Source of the DNA: an uncultured Methanosarcinales archaeon
GTDB lineage: Archaea > Nanobdellota > Nanobdellia > Woesearchaeales > JAGWAF01
DNA: 59,311 bases
Assembly: GCA_964597775.1 (NCBI GenBank)
Contig: CAZQZJ010000003.1
Location: 1-59,311 of the forward strand
Direction of reading: 5' to 3'
Both the position numbers and the translations under genes were made by a program. The notes beneath the pieces are model-generated. The model made no database searches, was not told where the DNA came from, and worked only from the letters and a program-made list of their open reading frames with translations. The stretch's first letter is position 1, and the number at the start of each line of letters is the position of its first letter. Shown here in pieces: positions 8,762-59,311 of the stretch.

Positions 8762-9487
8762 GTGACTATGAACAAGAAGTTTGGTTTGGTTGCACCAAGA
8801 TTTAAACATGTTATTCTGGCTATATCTATTGCAATTGTGTTGGCATTTTTTGTGAATTATACTCTTACAGTTTTGTATCATGAGCCAGAGTATGATGAAT
8901 TTTGTTCAAGTGAATATCATGAGTATACTGATCGTGCGTCATGCGAGGCTAGCGATGGCAAGTGGTATGACGCTGGGAAGAGTAGGCCTGTTGATTTTTC
9001 TGGTCATGTGAAACCTGGTGTTGAGGTAAGGGATTGTCCTGGTCTTTGCAAGGTTGTTCTTGAGCAGGATGTTTGTAATCAAGCAAATATAACATCTTGC
9101 ATATTTTCAAATGTTGTATTTGAGAATGAATGTATGCAATATGGAGGGATTTTTTTTCCTTCAAAACAATGTCCTACTTCAATAAGTATGTTTAGGGGTC
9201 ATTGTGATGCATATTATACATGCAATTTAAAATTGCAGCAGGCCACTAACTTGTATCGCAGAAATGTTTTTCTTACACAGATTATGATTGGTGGATTGCT
9301 TATGGTTGCAGGTATTGCATTAGCTCTTCCTGCAGTAAGTGGTGGTATAATGAGCGGGGCTGTGATTACTCTTTTTGTTGGATTGGTTGGGTATTGGGAT
9401 ATACTTGATAAGTGGGTGCGTATCAGCATTCTCGGGTTGATTTTAGTGGTGTTGATCTGGCTTGGATATAAGAAACTGCAAAAGTAA
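8762..9487 (+). CDS. Membrane protein with a Cys-rich extracellular loop
   Basis: N-terminal TM, loop with about 11 Cys, four C-terminal TM segments. Confidence 0.75.
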   Translation: MTMNKKFGLVAPRFKHVILAISIAIVLAFFVNYTLTVLYHEPEYDEFCSSEYHEYTDRASCEASDGKWYDAGKSRPVDFSGHVKPGVEVRDCPGLCKVVLEQDVCNQANITSCIFSNVVFENECMQYGGIFFPSKQCPTSISMFRGHCDAYYTCNLKLQQATNLYRRNVFLTQIMIGGLLMVAGIALALPAVSGGIMSGAVITLFVGLVGYWDILDKWVRISILGLILVVLIWLGYKKLQK

Positions 9488-9488
9488 G

Positions 9489-10448
9489 ATGCTATTATTT
9501 GAACTGCATAAGGATAATCTTGATCTTGCACAGACTGAGGTTCTTGCGTTATGTAATACAAAGAAAGGTGTTTTAATTGACAATTTATTTTTGGTAAGAA
9601 GTAGATATGATCCCATATTGCTTAGATTGGCATATACTAGACAAATATTTGAGGTATTAGGAGCAGCAAAAAGCCTGGATTGTTTAGAGAGTTTTCTCAA
9701 ACATGTTAAGATTGGAAGTTGTACTGGTTCATTTTGTGTTCGTGTGTATCCTGCTAATAAACCATTAGAATTATTGGTGGCAAAACAAATATTTCATAAG
9801 TGTAAAAATCCAAGAGTAGATTTGGATGATCCACATAACTTTTTTGCATTATTTTGCTATAAAAACAAGGCTATACTGGCAAAACGTGTCGCACTGATTA
9901 CAAATAATTTTGAATCAAGAAAGGCTCATTATAGAGCTTGTCTTAAACCTGTTAGTCTACATCCTAAATTAGCTGCTGCAATGGTGAACCTTTCTGGAGT
10001 AAGATCTGGTTGTGTATTGGATCCTTGTGCTGGAACAGGAGGGATTCTTCTTGAAGCAGGATTAATGAATCTTGAGATAACTGGTGTTGATGTTGATCCT
10101 GAGATGGTAAATGCCTGTACTAAGAATCTTGCCAAATTTGGTGTTGCAGCAAGGGTGTTACATCAGGACGCATTGCTGCTACAGGGTTCATTTCCTGTGG
10201 TTGTATCTGATCTTCCATATGGCAGAAATACCAAGGATCAAGATGTATCAGCTTTTTTTTATGCAATGTTAAAAATGTTAAGAAGATGGAAGACAAAGAT
10301 AGCTGTGTTTGGTCTTCCTAGTTTTGTGAATGTTAATCTAATTGCAAAAAAGGCTGGTGTAATAGTATCTAACGAGTTTGTAATCTATATACATAAAAGT
10401 TTGTCTAAAAAAATTGTTGTTATAAAAAAAGGGGAGCGCCACTTTTGA
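9489..10448 (+). CDS. trm11: tRNA (guanine-10-N2)-methyltransferase, THUMP plus Rossmann (Trm11/TrmG10)
   Basis: SLHPKLAAAMVNL, VLDPCAGTGGILLEAG and DLPYG motifs; ATG at 9489. Confidence 0.85.
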   Translation: MLLFELHKDNLDLAQTEVLALCNTKKGVLIDNLFLVRSRYDPILLRLAYTRQIFEVLGAAKSLDCLESFLKHVKIGSCTGSFCVRVYPANKPLELLVAKQIFHKCKNPRVDLDDPHNFFALFCYKNKAILAKRVALITNNFESRKAHYRACLKPVSLHPKLAAAMVNLSGVRSGCVLDPCAGTGGILLEAGLMNLEITGVDVDPEMVNACTKNLAKFGVAARVLHQDALLLQGSFPVVVSDLPYGRNTKDQDVSAFFYAMLKMLRRWKTKIAVFGLPSFVNVNLIAKKAGVIVSNEFVIYIHKSLSKKIVVIKKGERHF

Positions 10449-10554
10449 ACCCACTTTTTCGCCTAAACAAATTGAAGGCTGTAGGCGTGAGATGCGAAAT
10501 CTTTTTGTACAAAAACTTAAGTTGGCCAGAGGCCGATATTAAGCGTTTTTTATA
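10423..10554. repeat. Palindromic module array S-U-A
   Basis: S hairpin AAAAAAGGGGAGCGCCACTTTT, CGCCTA/TAGGCG inverted repeat, and module A (10507-10554), near-identical to 46548-46595; between convergent genes. Confidence 0.85.
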
Positions 10555-10567
10555 GAATCTTAATTTT

Positions 10568-11710
10568 TTAATTTCTTTTATTTTGTGTTTGTTTTGTTTT
10601 AGTGTTTTGTTGTTTGTCCTTGTGTATTTCTTTGACAATATAATCAGTACGTTCTTGTGGCACAAGTTTTAGGTTAAATGGCTCTGTTGATCTGTCAATT
10701 ACTTTGATCTTGTAGTCAGATGATTGGACTGGTTCATTGGCATGACTTGGAAGTTCTACTTTTTGTGCTGGAAAGATAGTAGGAACTGTTTCTAGTGCTG
10801 GGAGCTTTGTTGATAATGGTTTTTCTTTTATGCGTTTGAGTGCGATCTTAACTGCTTTGTCATAGCATGTGTCAAGCATGCTCCTCTGATTTTTGTTTGA
10901 CTGTGCAAAAAAGTTTGCTAGTTGAGCATCATTGAATGGTTCAATGTCGTGCCCTCCAAAGAATTCTATTCGTTTTTTAATCATTGCTCGAACACTTGGA
11001 TAGTTTAATGGTTTTAACTCAATGTGGAGGCTATCTTTTTGTTGAATATCGATGCGCTTGATTTGATCTACTGATCCTGTAATAATGATTTGTAGAGGAA
11101 TTTTTCTCTTGTAGAGTATGTCAAGACGTGTGAAACATTCTTTTGGCAGGGATGATGCATCATCAAGCAAGAGAATAAGGGGCTGTTTTTTGGTTTTCAT
11201 TATTATATATTCAAGAATAAGATTCTGATTTGAGAAGTCCCCTGCAGCAATGCGCTGGTAAAGTGAATCTGTTGCTTGATACTTTTTGTTGACTCTGGCT
11301 GCAATATAATCTGCAAGTTTGTTAATACCTGTTTTGTACCAGCTGTAAATAAGGACTTGCTCGTGGATGCCTAGGAGTGATTCAATAATATGTCTGGTAA
11401 ATTCTTTTTCTTTAATTTTTTCGCAAGGAATAAGCGCTATATGATAACGATTTCTATATTTTTGCAGTTCATATCCAAGCCAATTAAGGAGAAGTGATTT
11501 ACCCATTCCTAATGCACCTTTAATAGTTCCAAAGGAGTAGGCTTCAATAATAAAATAATTCAGCCGCTGCATTTCTGCTTCATAACCACTAATAAAATAG
11601 TCAACTGGTTCAAGATTTTCTGTTGTAAATGGATTTGAATTCCATCCTAACTCTTTGTACCAGTCAAGGGTGAATGCTTTTTTTATTTTATTGTTTTGTT
11701 TAGGCGACAT
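10568..11710 (-). CDS. AAA+ ATPase (ExeA/AAA_22-like)
   Basis: Walker A GALGMGKS, Walker B LILLLDDA, low-complexity C-terminal tail. Confidence 0.8.
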   Translation of the reverse strand: MSPKQNNKIKKAFTLDWYKELGWNSNPFTTENLEPVDYFISGYEAEMQRLNYFIIEAYSFGTIKGALGMGKSLLLNWLGYELQKYRNRYHIALIPCEKIKEKEFTRHIIESLLGIHEQVLIYSWYKTGINKLADYIAARVNKKYQATDSLYQRIAAGDFSNQNLILEYIIMKTKKQPLILLLDDASSLPKECFTRLDILYKRKIPLQIIITGSVDQIKRIDIQQKDSLHIELKPLNYPSVRAMIKKRIEFFGGHDIEPFNDAQLANFFAQSNKNQRSMLDTCYDKAVKIALKRIKEKPLSTKLPALETVPTIFPAQKVELPSHANEPVQSSDYKIKVIDRSTEPFNLKLVPQERTDYIVKEIHKDKQQNTKTKQTQNKRN

Positions 11711-21807: not shown

Positions 21808-22587
21808 GTGGTTATGGTTTTAAAGAAACAACTTTTGTTTATTCTTCTCTGGCCAATAATCGCTGCATTACTATCTTTTTTGTTAAAAGCAAATACGTTG
21901 GCTTCAACATTGCTTTTCTTTGGAATTCCTGCAGTATATCTTTCTTTCCTAAAAAAAGACTGTGTGAGAATGGTGACAATATTTTCTGTAATATTTAGCA
22001 TTCCATTTGCTATTATTTTGGATTATGTGATGGAAATTACCGGCGGATGGTATATTCCGAAATCGGTTTTTGACCCTTTGCGGTTGTTTGGATACGTGTC
22101 TCTTGAACAGTTGATTTGGCTGTTCTTGTTCATGTACCTTGTTGGAATTTTTTACGAAGTGTTTTTTGACAAGAAGTGCACGCATAAATTGAATACGCCG
22201 AAACTCAAATATGCGATTTTTGGACTTGTGGTATTTTTTGGAATGTTCATAATTCTGCATATTACAAAACATGAGTTACTTAAAATTAACTTTTTCTACT
22301 TAAAATTCGGAATTATATTGGCACTTCTCCCATTTTTATTCGCACTTTTCCATTTTCCTGATCTTTACAGCGCCATGTTAATTATTGGTAGTTATTTCGC
22401 TTATTTATCATTTATTTACGAAATTACTGCGCTGTCATTGGGGCAGTGGACTTTTCCTGCAGTTGATCAGTTTATTGGATTTGTGAATGTTGGCGGCGTG
22501 ACTTTTCCTATTGAAGAGTTCTTGTTTTGGATTCTTTTAGGCTCACTTGCCACACTGACATATTACCGCTATTTTGGAGAGAAATAA
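21808..22587 (+). CDS. Tandem lycopene cyclase-domain membrane protein
   Basis: Two repeats of D/E-x4-G-x-W...G-x-P/S-x-E-E/Q (LDYVMEITGGWYIP...GYVSLEQ; YEITALSLGQWTFP...GVTFPIEE). Confidence 0.65.
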   Translation: MVMVLKKQLLFILLWPIIAALLSFLLKANTLASTLLFFGIPAVYLSFLKKDCVRMVTIFSVIFSIPFAIILDYVMEITGGWYIPKSVFDPLRLFGYVSLEQLIWLFLFMYLVGIFYEVFFDKKCTHKLNTPKLKYAIFGLVVFFGMFIILHITKHELLKINFFYLKFGIILALLPFLFALFHFPDLYSAMLIIGSYFAYLSFIYEITALSLGQWTFPAVDQFIGFVNVGGVTFPIEEFLFWILLGSLATLTYYRYFGEK

Positions 22588-22956
22588 AGAAATTGCCTGA
22601 AAACTGACTATCCCACCCTTCGCTTTGTTCACTCCGCAGCAAGCTGTGGTGTATTGGTCAGTTTTCTCGCTTCGCGACTGGCAATTTATATAGGAAATAA
22701 CCTTAATTTTAGGATATTTCACAAACGAAAGTAAGGTTATTTCCTAATAATCAAATCACTTTAATAATGGTAAAACATCTGATAATTAAAGTGATTTGAT
22801 ATAATTTCAGAATTGGGTTGTGCAACCGTAGCAGAGCTGTGTGGTATTGAACCCAATTCTGAAATAAAAAAAGTGCGCCTATTTTTGATTTGTCAAAGTC
22901 CACTAACATACTTGTTAAGCCCCAACCTATTGCAGAGGCACTGGCTTAACAAGTAC
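22583..22956. repeat. Palindromic module array Q-R1-R2-P-S-B
   Basis: Q 22583-22687, R1 22691-22746, R2 22750-22800, P 22804-22865, S-like 22866-22887 and B 22909-22956; each recurs elsewhere in the window. Confidence 0.92.
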
Positions 22957-29292: not shown

Positions 29293-29436
29293 ATGTTAGC
29301 TTTCCTTTCTAAATTTATTGAGTTTGAGTACGTATTAAGCAGGGGTCAGTAGTCTGGTCAGTTGGTAGAGGGCATTCTTGCAGGACTTATCACCATTGGA
29401 CTAATCCTTATCAAACTGATTCATCGTACTTGTTAA
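29293..29436 (+). pseudogene. Possible small membrane-protein pseudogene
   Basis: MLAFLSKFIEFEYVLSRGQ*SGQLVEGILAGLITIGLILIKLIHRTC*: one internal TAG (29350-29352), a TM-like C-terminus, and a stop supplied by the adjacent repeat. Confidence 0.35.
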
Positions 29437-29685
29437 GACCCTATCTGTTGCAGAGGCGCTGACTTGTGTTTGCATTCGCAAACACACAACGCCGCTCGCA
29501 CCTCACAGAACTATTCAAAGAAACCCTCCTATCTGGAACCTCCTCGGGTTTGCGTAGAACTTCATAATAGTGCTCGCATCCTGGCACAATCGAACCCTTC
29601 GGCTTTCGCTGTGCACAAGGTCGAAATGCGACCTTGTTGCGTTCCACGCCAGCGCCTCTGCATAACACCTGGCTTAACAAGTACG
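29425..29685. mobile_element. 261-bp non-autonomous REPIN/MITE-like element built from two inverted module-B ends
   Basis: 13-bp terminal IR CGTACTTGTTAAG/CTTAACAAGTACG, subterminal IR TGCAGAGGCGCTG/CAGCGCCTCTGCA, flanking direct repeat ATTCAT (29419-29424, 29686-29691), and a GC-rich multi-hairpin core. Confidence 0.8.
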
Positions 29686-29747
29686 ATTCATACCAATGTT
29701 TAAAAACTTGCAGAGACTCTAACTAAAAACCGCACAGCGGTTTTTCC

Positions 29748-32101: not shown

Positions 32102-32161
32102 CAGTGTTTCTTTTATTTTCCTCTTACTTGATAGGATTCTTTGTATAAGTCTTAAGAACTA

Positions 32162-32271
32162 TAGGAAATAACCTTAATTTTAGGATATTTCAAAAATGAA
32201 AGTAAGGTTATTTCCTAATAATCAAATCACTTTAATCTGGGAAAAATATCCTATAATTAAAGTGATTTGAT
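32162..32271. repeat. Palindromic modules R1-R2
   Basis: Arms TAGGAAATAACCTTA/TAAGGTTATTTCCTA and ATCAAATCACTTTAAT/ATTAAAGTGATTTGAT are identical to 22691-22800; cores differ slightly; between convergent genes. Confidence 0.92.
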
Positions 32272-32296
32272 ATACCTAATCAGTTTTTCAAAACGC

Positions 32297-33370
32297 TTAT
32301 AGTTTACACAAACTAATTGGCTTTCTTGTATCATCATAAAAACCAGATCTGCATTTGAGTTCAGGCTTACAATCAAAATCAGTGTTGCAACCAATGTTCT
32401 CTGATCTTGCTCTTTTTGGAGAACAAACCTTTGATTTATACAAATCATGGTATAAACAATCTATTTGCAAAGATTCTTTTTTCCCACCCCTTCCTAATAT
32501 TTCTTGAGCACACTCATCCTTTTTTTTACAGGATTCATTTAATCCACTAAACTCTGGTAAACAAATCCAAATTGGCTTATTTGTCTCATCATAAAAACCA
32601 GGCTTACAAACTAAAGACACAGCACAATCACTATTGGAGTTACATATAACATTCTTAGGCCGAGATGTCATAACTTGGCATACCTTTGATTTATAATCCT
32701 CATGGTACAAACATTTCAAACTAGGATCACACTCCACATTTCCACCACATACCTCATTTAACAATGCAAACTCTGGTTTGCATAACCCAATGGGCTTATT
32801 GGTCTCATCATAAAAACCAGACTTGCAGACTAAAGACACAGTGCAATCACTATTAGAATTACAGATAACATTGTTTAGACGCTTATTTCCAAAGGTACAA
32901 ATCTTGGTCTTAAAATCATCATGATATAAACAATCTGAGGATACAATCTTATTATCCTTATCAAGAAGCCTACACTCACTGCTTTTTATACAGCTTTGAT
33001 TAAAACCCTTAAACTCTGGCTGACATAAACTAATTTTCTTACCTTGATTGTCTCTAAATCCTTTAATACACCCAAGTCCTAACTGACAGTCACTATTTAA
33101 CGAGCATTCTAGACCAGAAACCCTATTATGCTTTGGAATACAAACGTTTCCTTGCTTATCTGAACTATACCCACATTCTGTAGATTCACACTCACTATCA
33201 CTCTGACAAGGCACTTCTAATGCATTATAAGAAGCTCTTAGATCGACATCACTCACTTCAAAACCAGTAATAGAAGTATGATATTTGGAAACTGTAAACA
33301 TAGAAAAGATACTGACAACGAGTACAAAAAATAATATAATAAGCTCTGAATGACTATTCATTACAATCAC
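32297..33370 (-). CDS. Membrane-anchored or secreted Cys-rich repeat protein
   Basis: N-terminal TM plus ITG motif, about 9 C-x5-C-x5-C-type units, and a 219-nt internal tandem repeat (32583 versus 32802). Confidence 0.85.
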   Translation of the reverse strand: MIVMNSHSELIILFFVLVVSIFSMFTVSKYHTSITGFEVSDVDLRASYNALEVPCQSDSECESTECGYSSDKQGNVCIPKHNRVSGLECSLNSDCQLGLGCIKGFRDNQGKKISLCQPEFKGFNQSCIKSSECRLLDKDNKIVSSDCLYHDDFKTKICTFGNKRLNNVICNSNSDCTVSLVCKSGFYDETNKPIGLCKPEFALLNEVCGGNVECDPSLKCLYHEDYKSKVCQVMTSRPKNVICNSNSDCAVSLVCKPGFYDETNKPIWICLPEFSGLNESCKKKDECAQEILGRGGKKESLQIDCLYHDLYKSKVCSPKRARSENIGCNTDFDCKPELKCRSGFYDDTRKPISLCKL

Positions 33371-46244: not shown

Positions 46245-46330
46245 AAAGACCTACACAATAAGAGTAGTTTATAATGATTAAGAAAGAAGAACTTTGAATA
46301 ACCCATTGATAAAAAAATACCCCACAATGA

Positions 46331-46595
46331 AAAAATGGGAGCGCCCCTTTTAAACCACCTTCTGCCTTGCTTTATTTCAGAATTGGGTTCAATACCCCAC
46401 AGCTCTGCTACTGTTGCACAATCCGATTCTGAAATTAGAAATTGTTGGTCGCGAAGCGAGAAAACTGACCAATATCCCACAGCTTGCTGCGGAGTGAGCG
46501 AAGCGAAGGGTGGGATGGTCAGTTTTCAGGCAATTTCTTTATTCTTGGTACAAAAACTTAAGTTGGCCAGAGGCCGACATTAAACGTTTTTTTAT
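46331..46595. repeat. Palindromic module array S-P-Q-A (P and Q inverted relative to the 22.6 kb array)
   Basis: By manual alignment P (46374-46435) differs from 22804-22865 at 4 of 62 positions and Q (46439-46543) from 22583-22687 at 8 of about 105; A at 46548-46595. Confidence 0.92.
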
Positions 46596-46670
46596 AAGTA
46601 ACTAAAACACCCAAGTTTAAAAATGATATATCATTATTAGTATTGGATCAATTTGGATTGATCATCTGCA

Positions 46671-48515
46671 ATGATATACCAACCACTACCAACCACACTT
46701 AGATCATTATACCAATCAACTGCAAAGGCTATTGTAGGTCTTACCCTTATTCAGTCCATTGCATTTGCTGGTAATATACCCCAAGCCAACCGCGTTGAGG
46801 TAGCTGATTACTGGAATAGCAACAAAGTCCAACAAATACTTATTGACACCTACAAAAAAAAGAACCCTAAAAACTATACAAGCATTGTAGAATCCATTAA
46901 CAATGCAGCAAACAGCCTACGAGTCAAGATACGAACAACCAATGGAAAAACTGTTGAATTCAAATTACCAAACGAAAATACCTACAGACCAATTCTTACA
47001 GATCAAGAGGTAGTAGGAGGTATTGATAATATTGTTCAAGAATCAGATTTTGAAGAAAAGAATCTCCTAGCTATTCCAACACCAGAGCCATCTCCTACAA
47101 AACCTAGTCTTGAAGAACCCAGACCAGAACAAACAAATGCCACCTATCCACAGATAACCCCAGAACAATTTACAAGCAGACTTGAAGAGATCAGCAAAGA
47201 ACTAATCAATTCCCAAAGACACAAAGCAAATGCTAGACCATACCAAGTGATTCTTACTGATGCTAAGACGTTATGGTACAGCTTTTTAAGAACAGCATAC
47301 CCCTATGTTGCAGAACAAGACATCCCCTTATTTTACCAATATATAATCAAGAGCCCTTATTTTGTCAATCGTGAAGAAAAGCTCCTTCCAACATATAATA
47401 AAGTGGTAGTTTCCGAGCTTGCAAAATTACTAAACCATACCCAAGTAATACAGCAGTATGCACCAAAATTCTCAGAAAAGATACGAGAACAGCTAACACT
47501 AGAAATAAAGATCCTTGAAGAACACAAAAAGAGAATCATACAAAAAGGAAACTGGGCAGAGAATGTCACTGACAAATTCATATTTACAGAGGAGATCAGA
47601 GATTCGCATGTAGAAAATATCAAAAAGGTCGTGATTCGGGCGGAAAGCTACCTACCACGAGATAGCGATGGCAACATCATACAAAAAGACAAACTGGACA
47701 GAAATGGATGGGTTTACTACCATGCCAACAGCGCAATCCGAACCAACAACCCATTTGAAAATGATTTTACACACGCAGAATTTGGCACTACCATGATCAT
47801 GCACGCATTCCAATACAGAAACGAATTTAGCATGGATGCGTGGATCAACCCAGACACATTTGCATGGTACATGGACATGCACCAACGCATAGGCCATGTA
47901 CTTGATGACATGTTTGACCATGTCCAAAAACACACTGACTTACGCGAATATCTCCAAACTTGCCTACAACCAGAACACCTCACTATAAACACTGACTATG
48001 ACGGCAAACCACACTACAAATTTGGATTTACCACTACCAAAGAATATGTTGATGGTTTTGCAGCTGCTCGCAAACATATGGATGATATCTACCAACAAAA
48101 CACATCACTAGCTGGATTTTTGGAAAGATCCTTTCTCAAACTCCCTATACATGTACTTGATCGTTCCTTTATTAATCTCGGAAAAATCGGTGAAGACATA
48201 GGAGAAGGAAAAATCGCACGACTTGCCTCAACAGATGTATGGAGACTACTTAGCAACTACTTTTTTTTTAAGAACTATGAAGCCATGCTACATGGAAACA
48301 CAGACGCCCTTGCATCACACATTCTTTTCGGAGCTGGAGAAACATCACCAAGAGATGCTGCAGAAGGATTATACAATAATTTGACATCATTTGCACGAGA
48401 CAGTGTTGACATGAAAGGACGGCTTGCAGCTGGACTTAGCACCTATTTTAACACAGACTATTTAATCAATGGAGTTCCTGCCTCATATCGGTTTTTACAT
48501 GATTCAATACGATAA
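46671..48515 (+). CDS. Secreted hypothetical protein: shared N-domain, Pro linker and a ~450-aa unknown domain
   Basis: Signal peptide-like N-terminus (...QSIAFA); N-domain near-identical to that of 49784..50557; His-rich helical C-domain. Confidence 0.85.
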   Translation: MIYQPLPTTLRSLYQSTAKAIVGLTLIQSIAFAGNIPQANRVEVADYWNSNKVQQILIDTYKKKNPKNYTSIVESINNAANSLRVKIRTTNGKTVEFKLPNENTYRPILTDQEVVGGIDNIVQESDFEEKNLLAIPTPEPSPTKPSLEEPRPEQTNATYPQITPEQFTSRLEEISKELINSQRHKANARPYQVILTDAKTLWYSFLRTAYPYVAEQDIPLFYQYIIKSPYFVNREEKLLPTYNKVVVSELAKLLNHTQVIQQYAPKFSEKIREQLTLEIKILEEHKKRIIQKGNWAENVTDKFIFTEEIRDSHVENIKKVVIRAESYLPRDSDGNIIQKDKLDRNGWVYYHANSAIRTNNPFENDFTHAEFGTTMIMHAFQYRNEFSMDAWINPDTFAWYMDMHQRIGHVLDDMFDHVQKHTDLREYLQTCLQPEHLTINTDYDGKPHYKFGFTTTKEYVDGFAAARKHMDDIYQQNTSLAGFLERSFLKLPIHVLDRSFINLGKIGEDIGEGKIARLASTDVWRLLSNYFFFKNYEAMLHGNTDALASHILFGAGETSPRDAAEGLYNNLTSFARDSVDMKGRLAAGLSTYFNTDYLINGVPASYRFLHDSIR

Positions 48516-48517
48516 AA

Positions 48518-48566
48518 GTACTTGTTAAGACCCTATCGGTTGCAGAGGCGCTGGCTTAACAAGTAC
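48518..48566. repeat. Stand-alone module B (49 bp)
   Basis: GTACTTGTTAAG-ACCCTATCGGTTGCAGAGGCGCTGG-CTTAACAAGTAC, 2 nt after a stop codon. Confidence 0.92.
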
Positions 48567-49783: not shown

Positions 49784-50557
49784 ATGAAATATACAACATC
49801 AGCACAAGACTTGTTTACATCATTATACAAAACAACTGCTAAATGTATAGCAGGAATTACCCTACTCCAATCAATTGCATTTGCAGACACTATACCACAA
49901 ACATATCGAGTTGAAGTTGCTGATTATTGGAACAGCAACAAAGTCCAACAAATACTTATTGACACCTACAAAAAAAAGGATCCTAAAAACTATACTGACC
50001 TTGTAGAATCCATTAACAATGCAGCAAACAGCCTACGAGTCAAGATACGAACAACCAATGGAAAAACTGTTGAATTCAAATTACCAAACGAAAATACCTA
50101 CAGACCAATTCTTACAGATCAAGATGTAGTAGGAGGTATTGATAATATTGTTCAAGAATTAGATTCTGAAGAAGAAACCACAGGATTTGAATACAAACCA
50201 TTGCCACTTCCTTCTCCAGAACCTACGCCAAGCCCTGCACCACAGACTCCTCCTTCTTATTCTGATTCACGTCCTAAGATTCCTTTGGATGTTCCTGGTC
50301 CAGAATATGACAGCAGATTAAATAACACAGAAAAAAGTCCAGAAGAACACCGTACACGTATCAACAATGCAGTTCCTATTATTCTAGGAGGTACAATCTT
50401 ATACCTTATTTTGAGAGGAAGAGGTAGTAGCAGAAGCAACCAAGCTCCAGCAAGGGGCAGTATTGGAAGCGGTTCTGGAGGAGGCGGAGGAAGTGGTAGT
50501 GGAACAAGCCCTGGATTTAACCCAAATAATCACATTGGCCCTGGAGACACTAGATAG
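49784..50557 (+). CDS. Secreted or anchored protein: shared N-domain, Pro linker, TM and Gly-rich tail
   Basis: Same N-domain as 46671..48515; TM AVPIILGGTILYLIL; GSGGGGGSG tail. Confidence 0.85.
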   Translation: MKYTTSAQDLFTSLYKTTAKCIAGITLLQSIAFADTIPQTYRVEVADYWNSNKVQQILIDTYKKKDPKNYTDLVESINNAANSLRVKIRTTNGKTVEFKLPNENTYRPILTDQDVVGGIDNIVQELDSEEETTGFEYKPLPLPSPEPTPSPAPQTPPSYSDSRPKIPLDVPGPEYDSRLNNTEKSPEEHRTRINNAVPIILGGTILYLILRGRGSSRSNQAPARGSIGSGSGGGGGSGSGTSPGFNPNNHIGPGDTR

Positions 50558-57776: not shown

Positions 57777-57932
57777 GGGGCTGTAGTATAACTTGGCTAG
57801 AATAGGTGGCTCCAGTCATGGAGCGATGAGCTGCAGTAATCTGTAGCAATGAAATAAACCTATGGTCTGTTGAAGCCTTTGCTTCAAGGAAGAGACCACC
57901 GGATCAGGGTTCAAATCCCTGCAGCCCCACCA
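57777..57932 (+). tRNA. tRNA-Trp(CCA) with a canonical 37/38 intron (57816-57894) and encoded CCA
   Basis: GGGGCTG/CAGCCCC-A-CCA; anticodon stem GGTGG/CCACC; BHB with central helix CTCC/GAAG (one mismatch) and intron stem CATGGAGC/GCTTCAAG; TTTATAAA about 30 nt upstream. Confidence 0.95.
57816..57894 (+). ncRNA. Intron-encoded box C/D-like guide RNA (putative Cm34/Cm39)
   Basis: TGGAGC-g-ATGA and TGGTCT-g-TTGA: antisense elements place C34 and C39 opposite the fifth nt upstream of D-like boxes. Confidence 0.55.
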
Positions 57933-59224: not shown

Positions 59225-59226
59225 AT

Positions 59227-59311
59227 TATAAAAAATGCTTAAGTAGGCCAGAGACCGACATTAAGCGTTTTTGTACCAAGAATAAAGAAATTGCCTAAAA
59301 ACTTACCATCC
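59227..59311. repeat. Palindromic module array A-Q (truncated by the window end)
   Basis: TATAAAAAATGCTTAA-GTAGGCCAGAGACCGACA-TTAAGCGTTTTTGTAC followed by CAAGAATAAAGAAATTGCC..., the Q start as in the reverse complement of 46519-46547. Confidence 0.9.

Follow-up and report, generated by a model that had tools for sequence, protein, structure and literature searches.

An intergenic hairpin whose interior is inverted relative to its flanks in one of three copies on a woesearchaeal contig

Module A is a 50-base palindrome, a long AT-footed hairpin, that occurs three times in the window (the whole 59,311-nt stretch of DNA analyzed here), at 10507-10555, 46548-46597, and 59226-59276. The last of these copies raises the question of whether, and by what route, the center of a hairpin has been turned around while its surroundings stayed in place. 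The original prediction rested on the second and third copies, and the sequences it quoted for them proved correct on rereading; it held that an 18-bp core between two TTAA motifs is inverted in the third copy and took this as direct evidence of recombination between the arms, by a site-specific invertase or by cruciform resolution. The copy at 10507-10555 was absent from that account. We refer to the three copies, in order of position, as c1, c2, and c3. Module A is the last, 3' unit of a composite intergenic repeat that runs P-box, S1, S2, Q, GTAC, A, and the copies and their adjoining arrays lie as follows.

10427 to 10506, plus strand: short array upstream of c1, with a P-box at 10433-10450 and a unique spacer of about 55 nt that ends in TTTTTGTAC
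10507 to 10555, plus strand: module A copy c1, core at 10521-10538, without Q; same orientation in L022-L025
46330 to 46551, plus strand: array X upstream of c2, with a P-box at 46338-46355, S1 at about 46374-46437, S2 at about 46436-46535, and Q at 46529-46551
46548 to 46597, plus strand: module A copy c2, core at 46562-46579, flanks and core both in the plus register; confirmed in L027
59226 to 59276, minus strand: module A copy c3, core at 59243-59260; junction identical in L001-L005
59273 to 59311, minus strand: array Y, with Q and the start of S2, leaving the contig end and continuing in L001 to about 9421

The window is a single contig whose far end falls within a repeat array. Pfam scans of 48 window open reading frames (ORFs) returned ordinary archaeal chromosomal functions, including STT3/AglB oligosaccharyltransferase, PEP synthase, GAPDH, TIM, HisRS, pyruvate dehydrogenase E1/E2, lipoyl synthase, ELP3, PhoH-PIN, and a PKD-repeat surface protein. 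None of the window ORFs was present in the protein collection searched. Contigs of metagenomes from Hainich groundwater well H51 carry genes identical to those of the window, and the homologues of a window protein are annotated as proteins of Candidatus Woesearchaeota or Nanoarchaeota metagenome-assembled genomes (MAGs). A phage origin of the window was considered and rejected, given that it has no similarity to phage records and carries housekeeping archaeal genes.

Several other features of the contig deserve mention in their own right. A 153-nt tRNA gene interrupted by a long intron lies at 57777-57929 (plus strand; Rfam match of 38.8 bits) and was missed by ARAGORN. A 300-nt direct repeat (46699-46998 and 49815-50114; 88% identical) comprises the 5' parts of two neighboring genes of 614 and 257 amino acids, neither with a Pfam match; the two have paralogous N termini and belong to a cluster of large secreted or surface-type proteins. 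The ORF at 32297-33370, which has no Pfam match, contains three tandem units of 219 to 255 nt that are 75 to 79% identical (32302-32936, minus strand), and its product is an internally repetitive protein. Finally, a GC-rich segment of about 270 nt (29415-29695, plus strand) lies inside one member of the GTACTTGTTAAG...CTTAACAAGTAC hairpin family, whose remaining copies (22904-22956 and 48514-48566) are each only about 50 nt long. This segment folds at -108 kcal/mol (z = -8.5 against shuffled sequences) with a 28-bp closing stem, is located 50 nt upstream of tRNA-Val, has no Rfam match up to an E value of 5, and is a candidate for either a structured RNA of no known family or a nested insertion.

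The copies of module A fold as hairpins on both strands. In the fold, the A-run pairs with the T-run, CG(C/T) with (A/G)CG, and TTAA with TTAA, followed by a G...C upper stem and an AGA loop, and an unpaired (bulged) A precedes the 3' TTAA. The arms, A5-C-(GC)-TTAA on one side and TTAA-(G/A)C(G/A)-T5-7 on the other, span 10 to 13 bp and are paired in every fold, and the direction of the module is set only by the loop, the bulged A, and a few mismatches. Read from its GTAC side, c1 is GTAC-AAAAAC-TTAA-GTTGGCCAGAGGCCGATA-TTAA-GCG-T6-ATAG. From the GTAC/Q side, c2 is GTAC-AAAAAC-TTAA-GTTGGCCAGAGGCCGACA-TTAA-ACG-T7-ATAA and c3, on the minus strand, is GTAC-AAAAAC-GC-TTAA-TGTCGGTCTCTGGCCTAC-TTAA-GCA-T6-ATAA; on the plus strand, c3 reads TTATAAAAAATGC-TTAA-GTAGGCCAGAGACCGACA-TTAA-GCG-TTTTT-GTAC. 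The c1 copy sits between convergent genes at 9462-10448 (plus strand) and 10568-11710 (minus strand), and c3 also lies between convergent genes. We also observed a C/T polymorphism between Hainich assemblies at position 10537 in the c1 core: L023 and L024 have GACATTAA, and the window, L022, and L025 have GATATTAA. With the T allele, a G-C pair of the plus strand becomes G-U.

The flip in c3 is real. With GTAC-A5, Q, and the T6-7-ATA tail as the reference, the 18-nt core, the AGA loop, and the bulged A of c3 are all reverse complemented: the loop AGA has become TCT, and the bulged A is found on the other side. The c2 and c3 cores are identical at 16 of 18 positions when one is flipped, compared to 11 of 18 plus end gaps when it is not. 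Six characters (three loop bases, the bulged A, and two stem mismatches) allow the core to be told apart from its reverse complement; five of them favor the flip, and none speaks against it. A covariance model of the hairpin frame scored the three copies at 61.4, 51, and 47.8 bits on the plus strand and at 31.8, 21.9, and 17.2 bits on the minus strand, a difference of about 30 bits; all three cores are on the plus strand, and the arrays run plus, plus, and minus. The flanks keep to the arrays. Q lies on the plus strand at 46529-46551 and on the minus strand at 59273-59295, with none expected by chance; the left flank (Q plus GTACAAAAAC) is alignable in the array orientation only; and GTACAAAAAC, TTTTTTATA, and the run lengths of A5 versus T6-7 track array orientation in all three copies. 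The flanks of c3 follow the minus-strand array, and its bulged A (59260) stands in the plus-strand register. This comparison is one of three copies, two of which carry Q, and flank orientation is set strongly by GTAC plus Q and weakly by T6-7-ATA(A/G) and the run lengths (estimated p of about 0.01 to 0.04). The inversion of the core relative to its flanks in the 59226 copy is thus borne out by both the core alignment and the strand difference of the covariance model.

The bounds of the inverted segment are less sharp than originally proposed. Because the flank features track array orientation, both breakpoints lie within the palindromic arms, and the inverted segment can be no shorter than 19 nt and no longer than about 43 nt. 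The arms A5-C-(GC)-TTAA are themselves palindromic, and the breakpoints cannot be placed within them because the informative arm positions are symmetric pairs. The inversion therefore cannot be assigned exactly to the stretch from TTAA to TTAA, even though the inversion itself stood. No observation marks TTAA as the point of exchange; the TTAA on both sides of the core belongs to the conserved palindromic stem, and there is no demonstrable target-site duplication. The idea of recombination between the arms fares similarly. Its best reading is an arm-enabled inversion of the hairpin interior, but to call the sequence direct evidence was too strong because, with palindromic arms, insertion in the opposite register or gene conversion would leave the same sequence.

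A first concern was that the flip reflects misassembly, and several observations bear on this. The contigs of several assemblies break inside the arrays (at least four assemblies have contigs that end there), and L005 links the 59226 copy to a different array version, both of which speak for an artefact. However, the path that matters, from the stop codon of the unique 78-aa gene through module A into Q, is less than 100 nt long and is identical in the window and in L001 to L005, which are independent ENA and Logan assemblies of different samples made with two assembly pipelines. We therefore ruled out misassembly, one of the outcomes that had been named as refuting the flip. The c1 orientation agrees in five assemblies (the window and L022 to L025, which differ only by the C/T polymorphism in the core), and that of c2 agrees in two (the window and L027, a contig beginning inside Q). 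No alternative orientation was found at the consensus level at any of the three loci in 6, 5, and 2 assemblies, respectively, for c3, c1, and c2; each locus has one orientation, fixed at the consensus level. Point mutation or evolution of the flanks could in principle have produced the same pattern without any inversion, given that the core is nearly palindromic and has few informative positions. Yet this route would take a minimum of four substitutions and two indels within 19 nt, against a background divergence of 13%. Taken together, an artefact or convergent change is the least credible of the explanations that we considered.

The L005 contig, from the 0.1-µm fraction, is of separate interest. 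It joins the 59226 copy of module A and Q to the other array version, with a 115-nt module and an S2 resembling those of X and Z (compare L005 540-828 with L001 9155-9420). Strain variation would explain this version, as would a chimeric assembly path along a 29-nt stretch common to the arrays.

The arrays themselves constrain how c3 arose. Arrays X (46330-46597) and Y are collinear and 86.8% identical over 228 ungapped positions, and array Y runs in L001 through S2, S1, and a P-box (L001, about 9395-9421, minus strand). The P-box has the sequence AAAAAA(T/G)GGAGCGCC(A/C)CTTTT(A/G)AAC. It opens each array (10433-10450, 46338-46355, and the L001 copy), where it reaches into the 3' end of the gene upstream and provides that gene's final codons and stop. 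At 10433-10450, it overlaps the last codons and the stop of a methyltransferase gene (ending ...KKGERHF*). Likewise, a 110-aa protein in L001 ends in ...KKMERHF*, of which seven codons come from the array Y P-box; the orthologues in relatives are without this 7-aa tail, which means that insertion of the array rewrote the C terminus of the protein. In five relatives, reached via homologues of the 78-aa gene (64 to 74% amino acid identity), the two convergent genes at the array Y site lie end to end or overlap, and both array and hairpin are missing, whereas in the window genome, the array fills the entire 247-nt intergenic space. The empty site in all five relatives indicates that the array is a lineage-specific insertion. 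These loci were also considered as a source for the ancestral c3 orientation, but all of them are without the array and are uninformative on an in situ flip.

Other repeats of the window and of related contigs have a mosaic build. An extra 115-nt module, itself made of two hairpins, lies between S1 and S2 at 22583-22873 and in L005, and it occurs alone at 32160-32274 in the window and at 7420-7550 in L014. The S1/S2 hairpins are found with or without it (including at 46366-46543), and the intergenic repeats are thus mosaics. The L014 contig, reached by one partial match when translated array ORFs were used as protein bait, carries an array without module A.

Module A is itself a member of a conserved hairpin frame, in which the lower stem and its bulged A are constant and the top varies. 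The order of the frame is A-run, CG(C/T), TTAA, G-stem-loop-C, bulged A, TTAA, (A/G)CG, and T-run. Copies found outside the window are as follows; the pattern used to search for the frame fixed the arms and left the core free.

L006 1071 to 1119: frame copy in JACQSU01
L006 1239 to 1281: frame copy
L007 370 to 420: frame copy in JACQSU01
L016 4654 to 4694: frame copy
L017 132 to 169: frame copy

The frame together with the same core occurs once in the distant Woesearchaeota MAG JACQSU01 (L006), at a nonorthologous site; we considered L006 as an orthologue of the c1 locus and rejected it, since the 328-aa neighbors are unrelated. JACQSU01 has the frame with two quite different cores (L006 1071-1119 and L007 370-420), the L007 copy also lying between convergent genes, and two to three further examples with other cores are present in JGI metagenomes. 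In every case, the core nevertheless builds a stem of 4 bp or more immediately upon the frame, and three upper-stem pairs show compensatory changes. In c3, L007, L006-ii, and L016, the frame is found in the sense direction directly past a same-strand stop codon. Beyond the window, the scan of genome contigs for the core gave one match (JACQSU01), JGI metagenome scans gave none for the core and three for the frame, and scans of viral contigs gave none for either. The covariance model found no further members of the frame in the 141 kb of sequence searched. Rfam gave no match at the gathering threshold in the window and only chance-level matches up to an E value of 5 in the three arrays, and a literature search found no paper describing the hairpin or repeat family.

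These data allow for a reading in which nothing was inverted. The hairpin would have kept its plus orientation throughout, either because the array was inserted at opposite feet of two hairpins or because the hairpin was inserted either way round beside Q. The plus-strand position of all three cores next to arrays that run plus, plus, and minus counts in favor of this reading. It also draws on the hairpin in JACQSU01 (L006), which lacks the GTAC, Q, and ATAA flanks, and on c1, which is module A without S1, S2, and Q and indicates that the modules reassort. In addition, the frame lies in sense just past a same-strand stop in the four copies named above, and the c2 core is closer to that of c1 than to that of c3, although Q is common to c2 and c3. 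The states common to c1 and c2 and not found in c3 (loss of the left GC and T at core position 3) are derived, suggesting that the modules have some independent history. Against it, an identical ATA(A/G) tail and an identical A5/T6-7 asymmetry would have to arise on opposite sides of the hairpin, and a site found empty in all relatives would have to receive two separate insertions instead of one. It also leaves unexplained why the divergence of the cores (11%) matches that of the arrays (13%). We regard this reading as unlikely, although it is the most serious of the alternatives.

By comparison, one inversion after duplication accounts for the divergence directly. The identity of the flipped core (16 of 18 positions, or 89%) is close to the 86.8% of the arrays, which fits the presence of module A in the ancestral array and a single inversion after the array was duplicated. 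Furthermore, because the site is empty in relatives and the array fills the intergenic space, the most economical history is one composite insertion, with the flip taking place inside the array.

An inversion could also have been copied in from elsewhere. In ectopic gene conversion, another copy of module A would have paired with c3 in the inverted register via the arms, and its core would have been copied backwards. The arms, as near-perfect palindromes, match equally well whichever way round they pair, and the genome has several near-identical copies. Moreover, c1 and c2 closely resemble each other although their arrays differ, which suggests that A modules have converted one another or been copied recently. 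However, arms of 12 to 13 bp are short for homologous exchange, and no donor with the c3-specific bases (A at core positions 3 and 12) was present in the 141 kb searched. The outcome of such an event is indistinguishable from that of an in situ inversion in the present data. We consider gene conversion rather improbable, below the reading without inversion.

The agents named in the original prediction fit the data poorly. In a programmed switch, a site-specific recombinase or a hairpin-specific nuclease acting at TTAA or at the arms would flip the core. It is true that the inverted segment is bordered by inverted repeats, and that the frame is kept across two distant Woesearchaeota genomes while the core varies, which leaves room for a dedicated protein partner. 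Nevertheless, no recombinase or transposase domain was found in the 48 window ORFs or in the genes of the L001 extension, and the Pfam scans of the window ORFs specifically returned no Resolvase, Phage_integrase, invertase, or transposase domain, although an ORF with no Pfam match could still encode such an enzyme. A segment of 18 to 30 bp is too short for the synapsis of duplex sites, given that duplex DNA cannot loop over such a distance, and to our knowledge it is far below the size of any invertase-driven switch. Each locus has a single orientation in 6, 5, and 2 assemblies, and the near-palindromic core has no obvious orientation-dependent signal. An invertase as the cause is therefore made unlikely by the domain scans, the segment length, and the fixed orientation, and we give a programmed switch very little credence. 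Cruciform resolution fails for a different reason, since cutting a cruciform yields hairpin-capped breaks and not an inversion.

A related and more speculative idea starts from the frame. Stripped of its core, the frame would form a perfect palindrome of 20 nt. Conceivably, AAAAACG(C/T)TTAAG...CATTAA(A/G)CGTTTTT is a cassette holder with the "empty" form AAAAACGCTTAAGCGTTTTT, in which an unrecognized hairpin-specific enzyme of DPANN archaea would cut the TTAA feet and swap or invert cores, and c3 would be a footprint of its activity. We think this quite improbable, hardly more credible than the programmed switch.

The explanation that we favor, at somewhat better than even confidence, is that after the duplication of X and Y, the hairpin interior of one copy was inverted by a replication template switch between the arms. 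Arrays X and Y would have been copied from a common ancestor that already ended in module A, and the hairpin interior of one array would then have been swapped for its own reverse complement, eased by the palindromic arms of 12 to 13 bp. The nascent strand would jump to the complementary strand within one arm, copy through the core, and return within the other arm. The loop, bulge, and mismatches would thereby be inverted and the outer flanks left intact. Such an inversion was probably neutral, because the hairpin forms either way, and would now be fixed in the population. Intermolecular template switches that join inverted-repeat arms at least about 10 bp long are known to invert the spacer and leave the flanks intact (PMC8604942), hairpin loops in rRNA genes have been inverted by template switching (PMC8794818), and hairpin-associated small inversions of 4 to 50 bp are pervasive in plastid DNA (PMC12371153). 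Several points weigh against it: the comparison is one of three copies, two of them with Q; the homology of the distal flank is short, amounting to ATA(A/G) plus run length; the derived states common to c1 and c2 point to some independent history of the modules; and the segment here is at least 19 nt long and itself a hairpin, whereas documented cases are mostly 2 to 8 nt. We infer both the mechanism and the in situ event.

What the hairpin may do is suggested by its position and its T-runs. Module A has runs of T5-7 on both strands and, judged by these and by its position, would most likely act as a bidirectional terminator or an RNA 3'-end hairpin. A terminator role draws no support from a scan with a simple terminator consensus, which did not call module A, and hairpin terminators are not enriched in the genome (15 versus 13.2 expected and 14 versus 13.0 expected). 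Measured against the perfect L006 stem, the window copies have four stem substitutions, and three of these are C to T on the array-sense strand, which leaves G-U wobbles in an array-sense RNA; in each copy, moreover, the array-sense strand gives the more favorable fold of the inner stem. The wobble pattern is compatible with selection on an array-sense transcript that ends in the hairpin, with numbers too small to carry weight.

In summary, c3 is a clean, assembly-verified inversion of a hairpin interior in an archaeal chromosome, and it is a warning for the alignment and classification of repeats, given that core and flanks may differ in orientation. Palindromic arms uncouple the orientation of the core from that of the flanks, which bears on how the evolution of modular intergenic repeats in DPANN genomes is modeled, and the arrays bear on why metagenome assemblies fragment. 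The surrounding repeat system is more interesting than the flip: the array inserts at gene ends, rewrites C termini, and ends in a frame that is conserved between distant Woesearchaeota.

Several known systems resemble parts of what we observed. Invertase switches such as Hin/Gin, FimB/E, and "invertons" likewise have a segment found in two orientations and bounded by inverted repeats. Unlike these, which span hundreds of base pairs, the module A segment is 18 to 30 bp with no recombinase gene detected in the ORFs scanned, its orientation is fixed per locus, and it carries nothing that is obviously orientation dependent. REP/BIME-type and MITE-like repeats are closer to the repeat system as a whole, since they are short, imperfect, dispersed intergenic palindromes, often past stop codons, that form mosaics with other modules, occur in both orientations, and break assemblies. 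In keeping with such a class, there are three copies in 59 kb, the core recurs at a nonorthologous site in JACQSU01, and the orthologous site is empty in relatives. The differences are that no RAYT or transposase was found in the sequence searched, that there is no GTAG-type head, that the host is an archaeon, and that it is the lower stem that is conserved, whereas the upper stem varies. For the flip itself, the nearest match is the template-switch inversion of inverted-repeat spacers and hairpin loops (PMC8604942, PMC8794818, PMC5453318), in which short arms of at least about 10 bp flank a segment that becomes its reverse complement, asymmetries included, while the flanks are unchanged and the hairpin is preserved; unlike those cases, which usually involve 2 to 8 nt, the module A segment is at least 19 nt, is itself a stem-loop, and belongs to an archaeal dispersed repeat. 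The minute inversions of plastid DNA, as described by Kelchner and Wendel (1996) and cited in PMC12371153, are similar in size (4 to 50 bp) and setting (intergenic hairpins near gene 3' ends, with the inverted repeats of the stem as flanks) and are, by that account, recurrent and apparently neutral. They differ in that c3 lies in a DPANN archaeal chromosome and is set against paralogous copies in one genome, not one locus across species. Collectively, these comparisons make the flip a fresh example of a known mutation type that by itself implies no new mechanism; it looks like an ordinary small palindrome inversion made during DNA copying, not a programmed switch.
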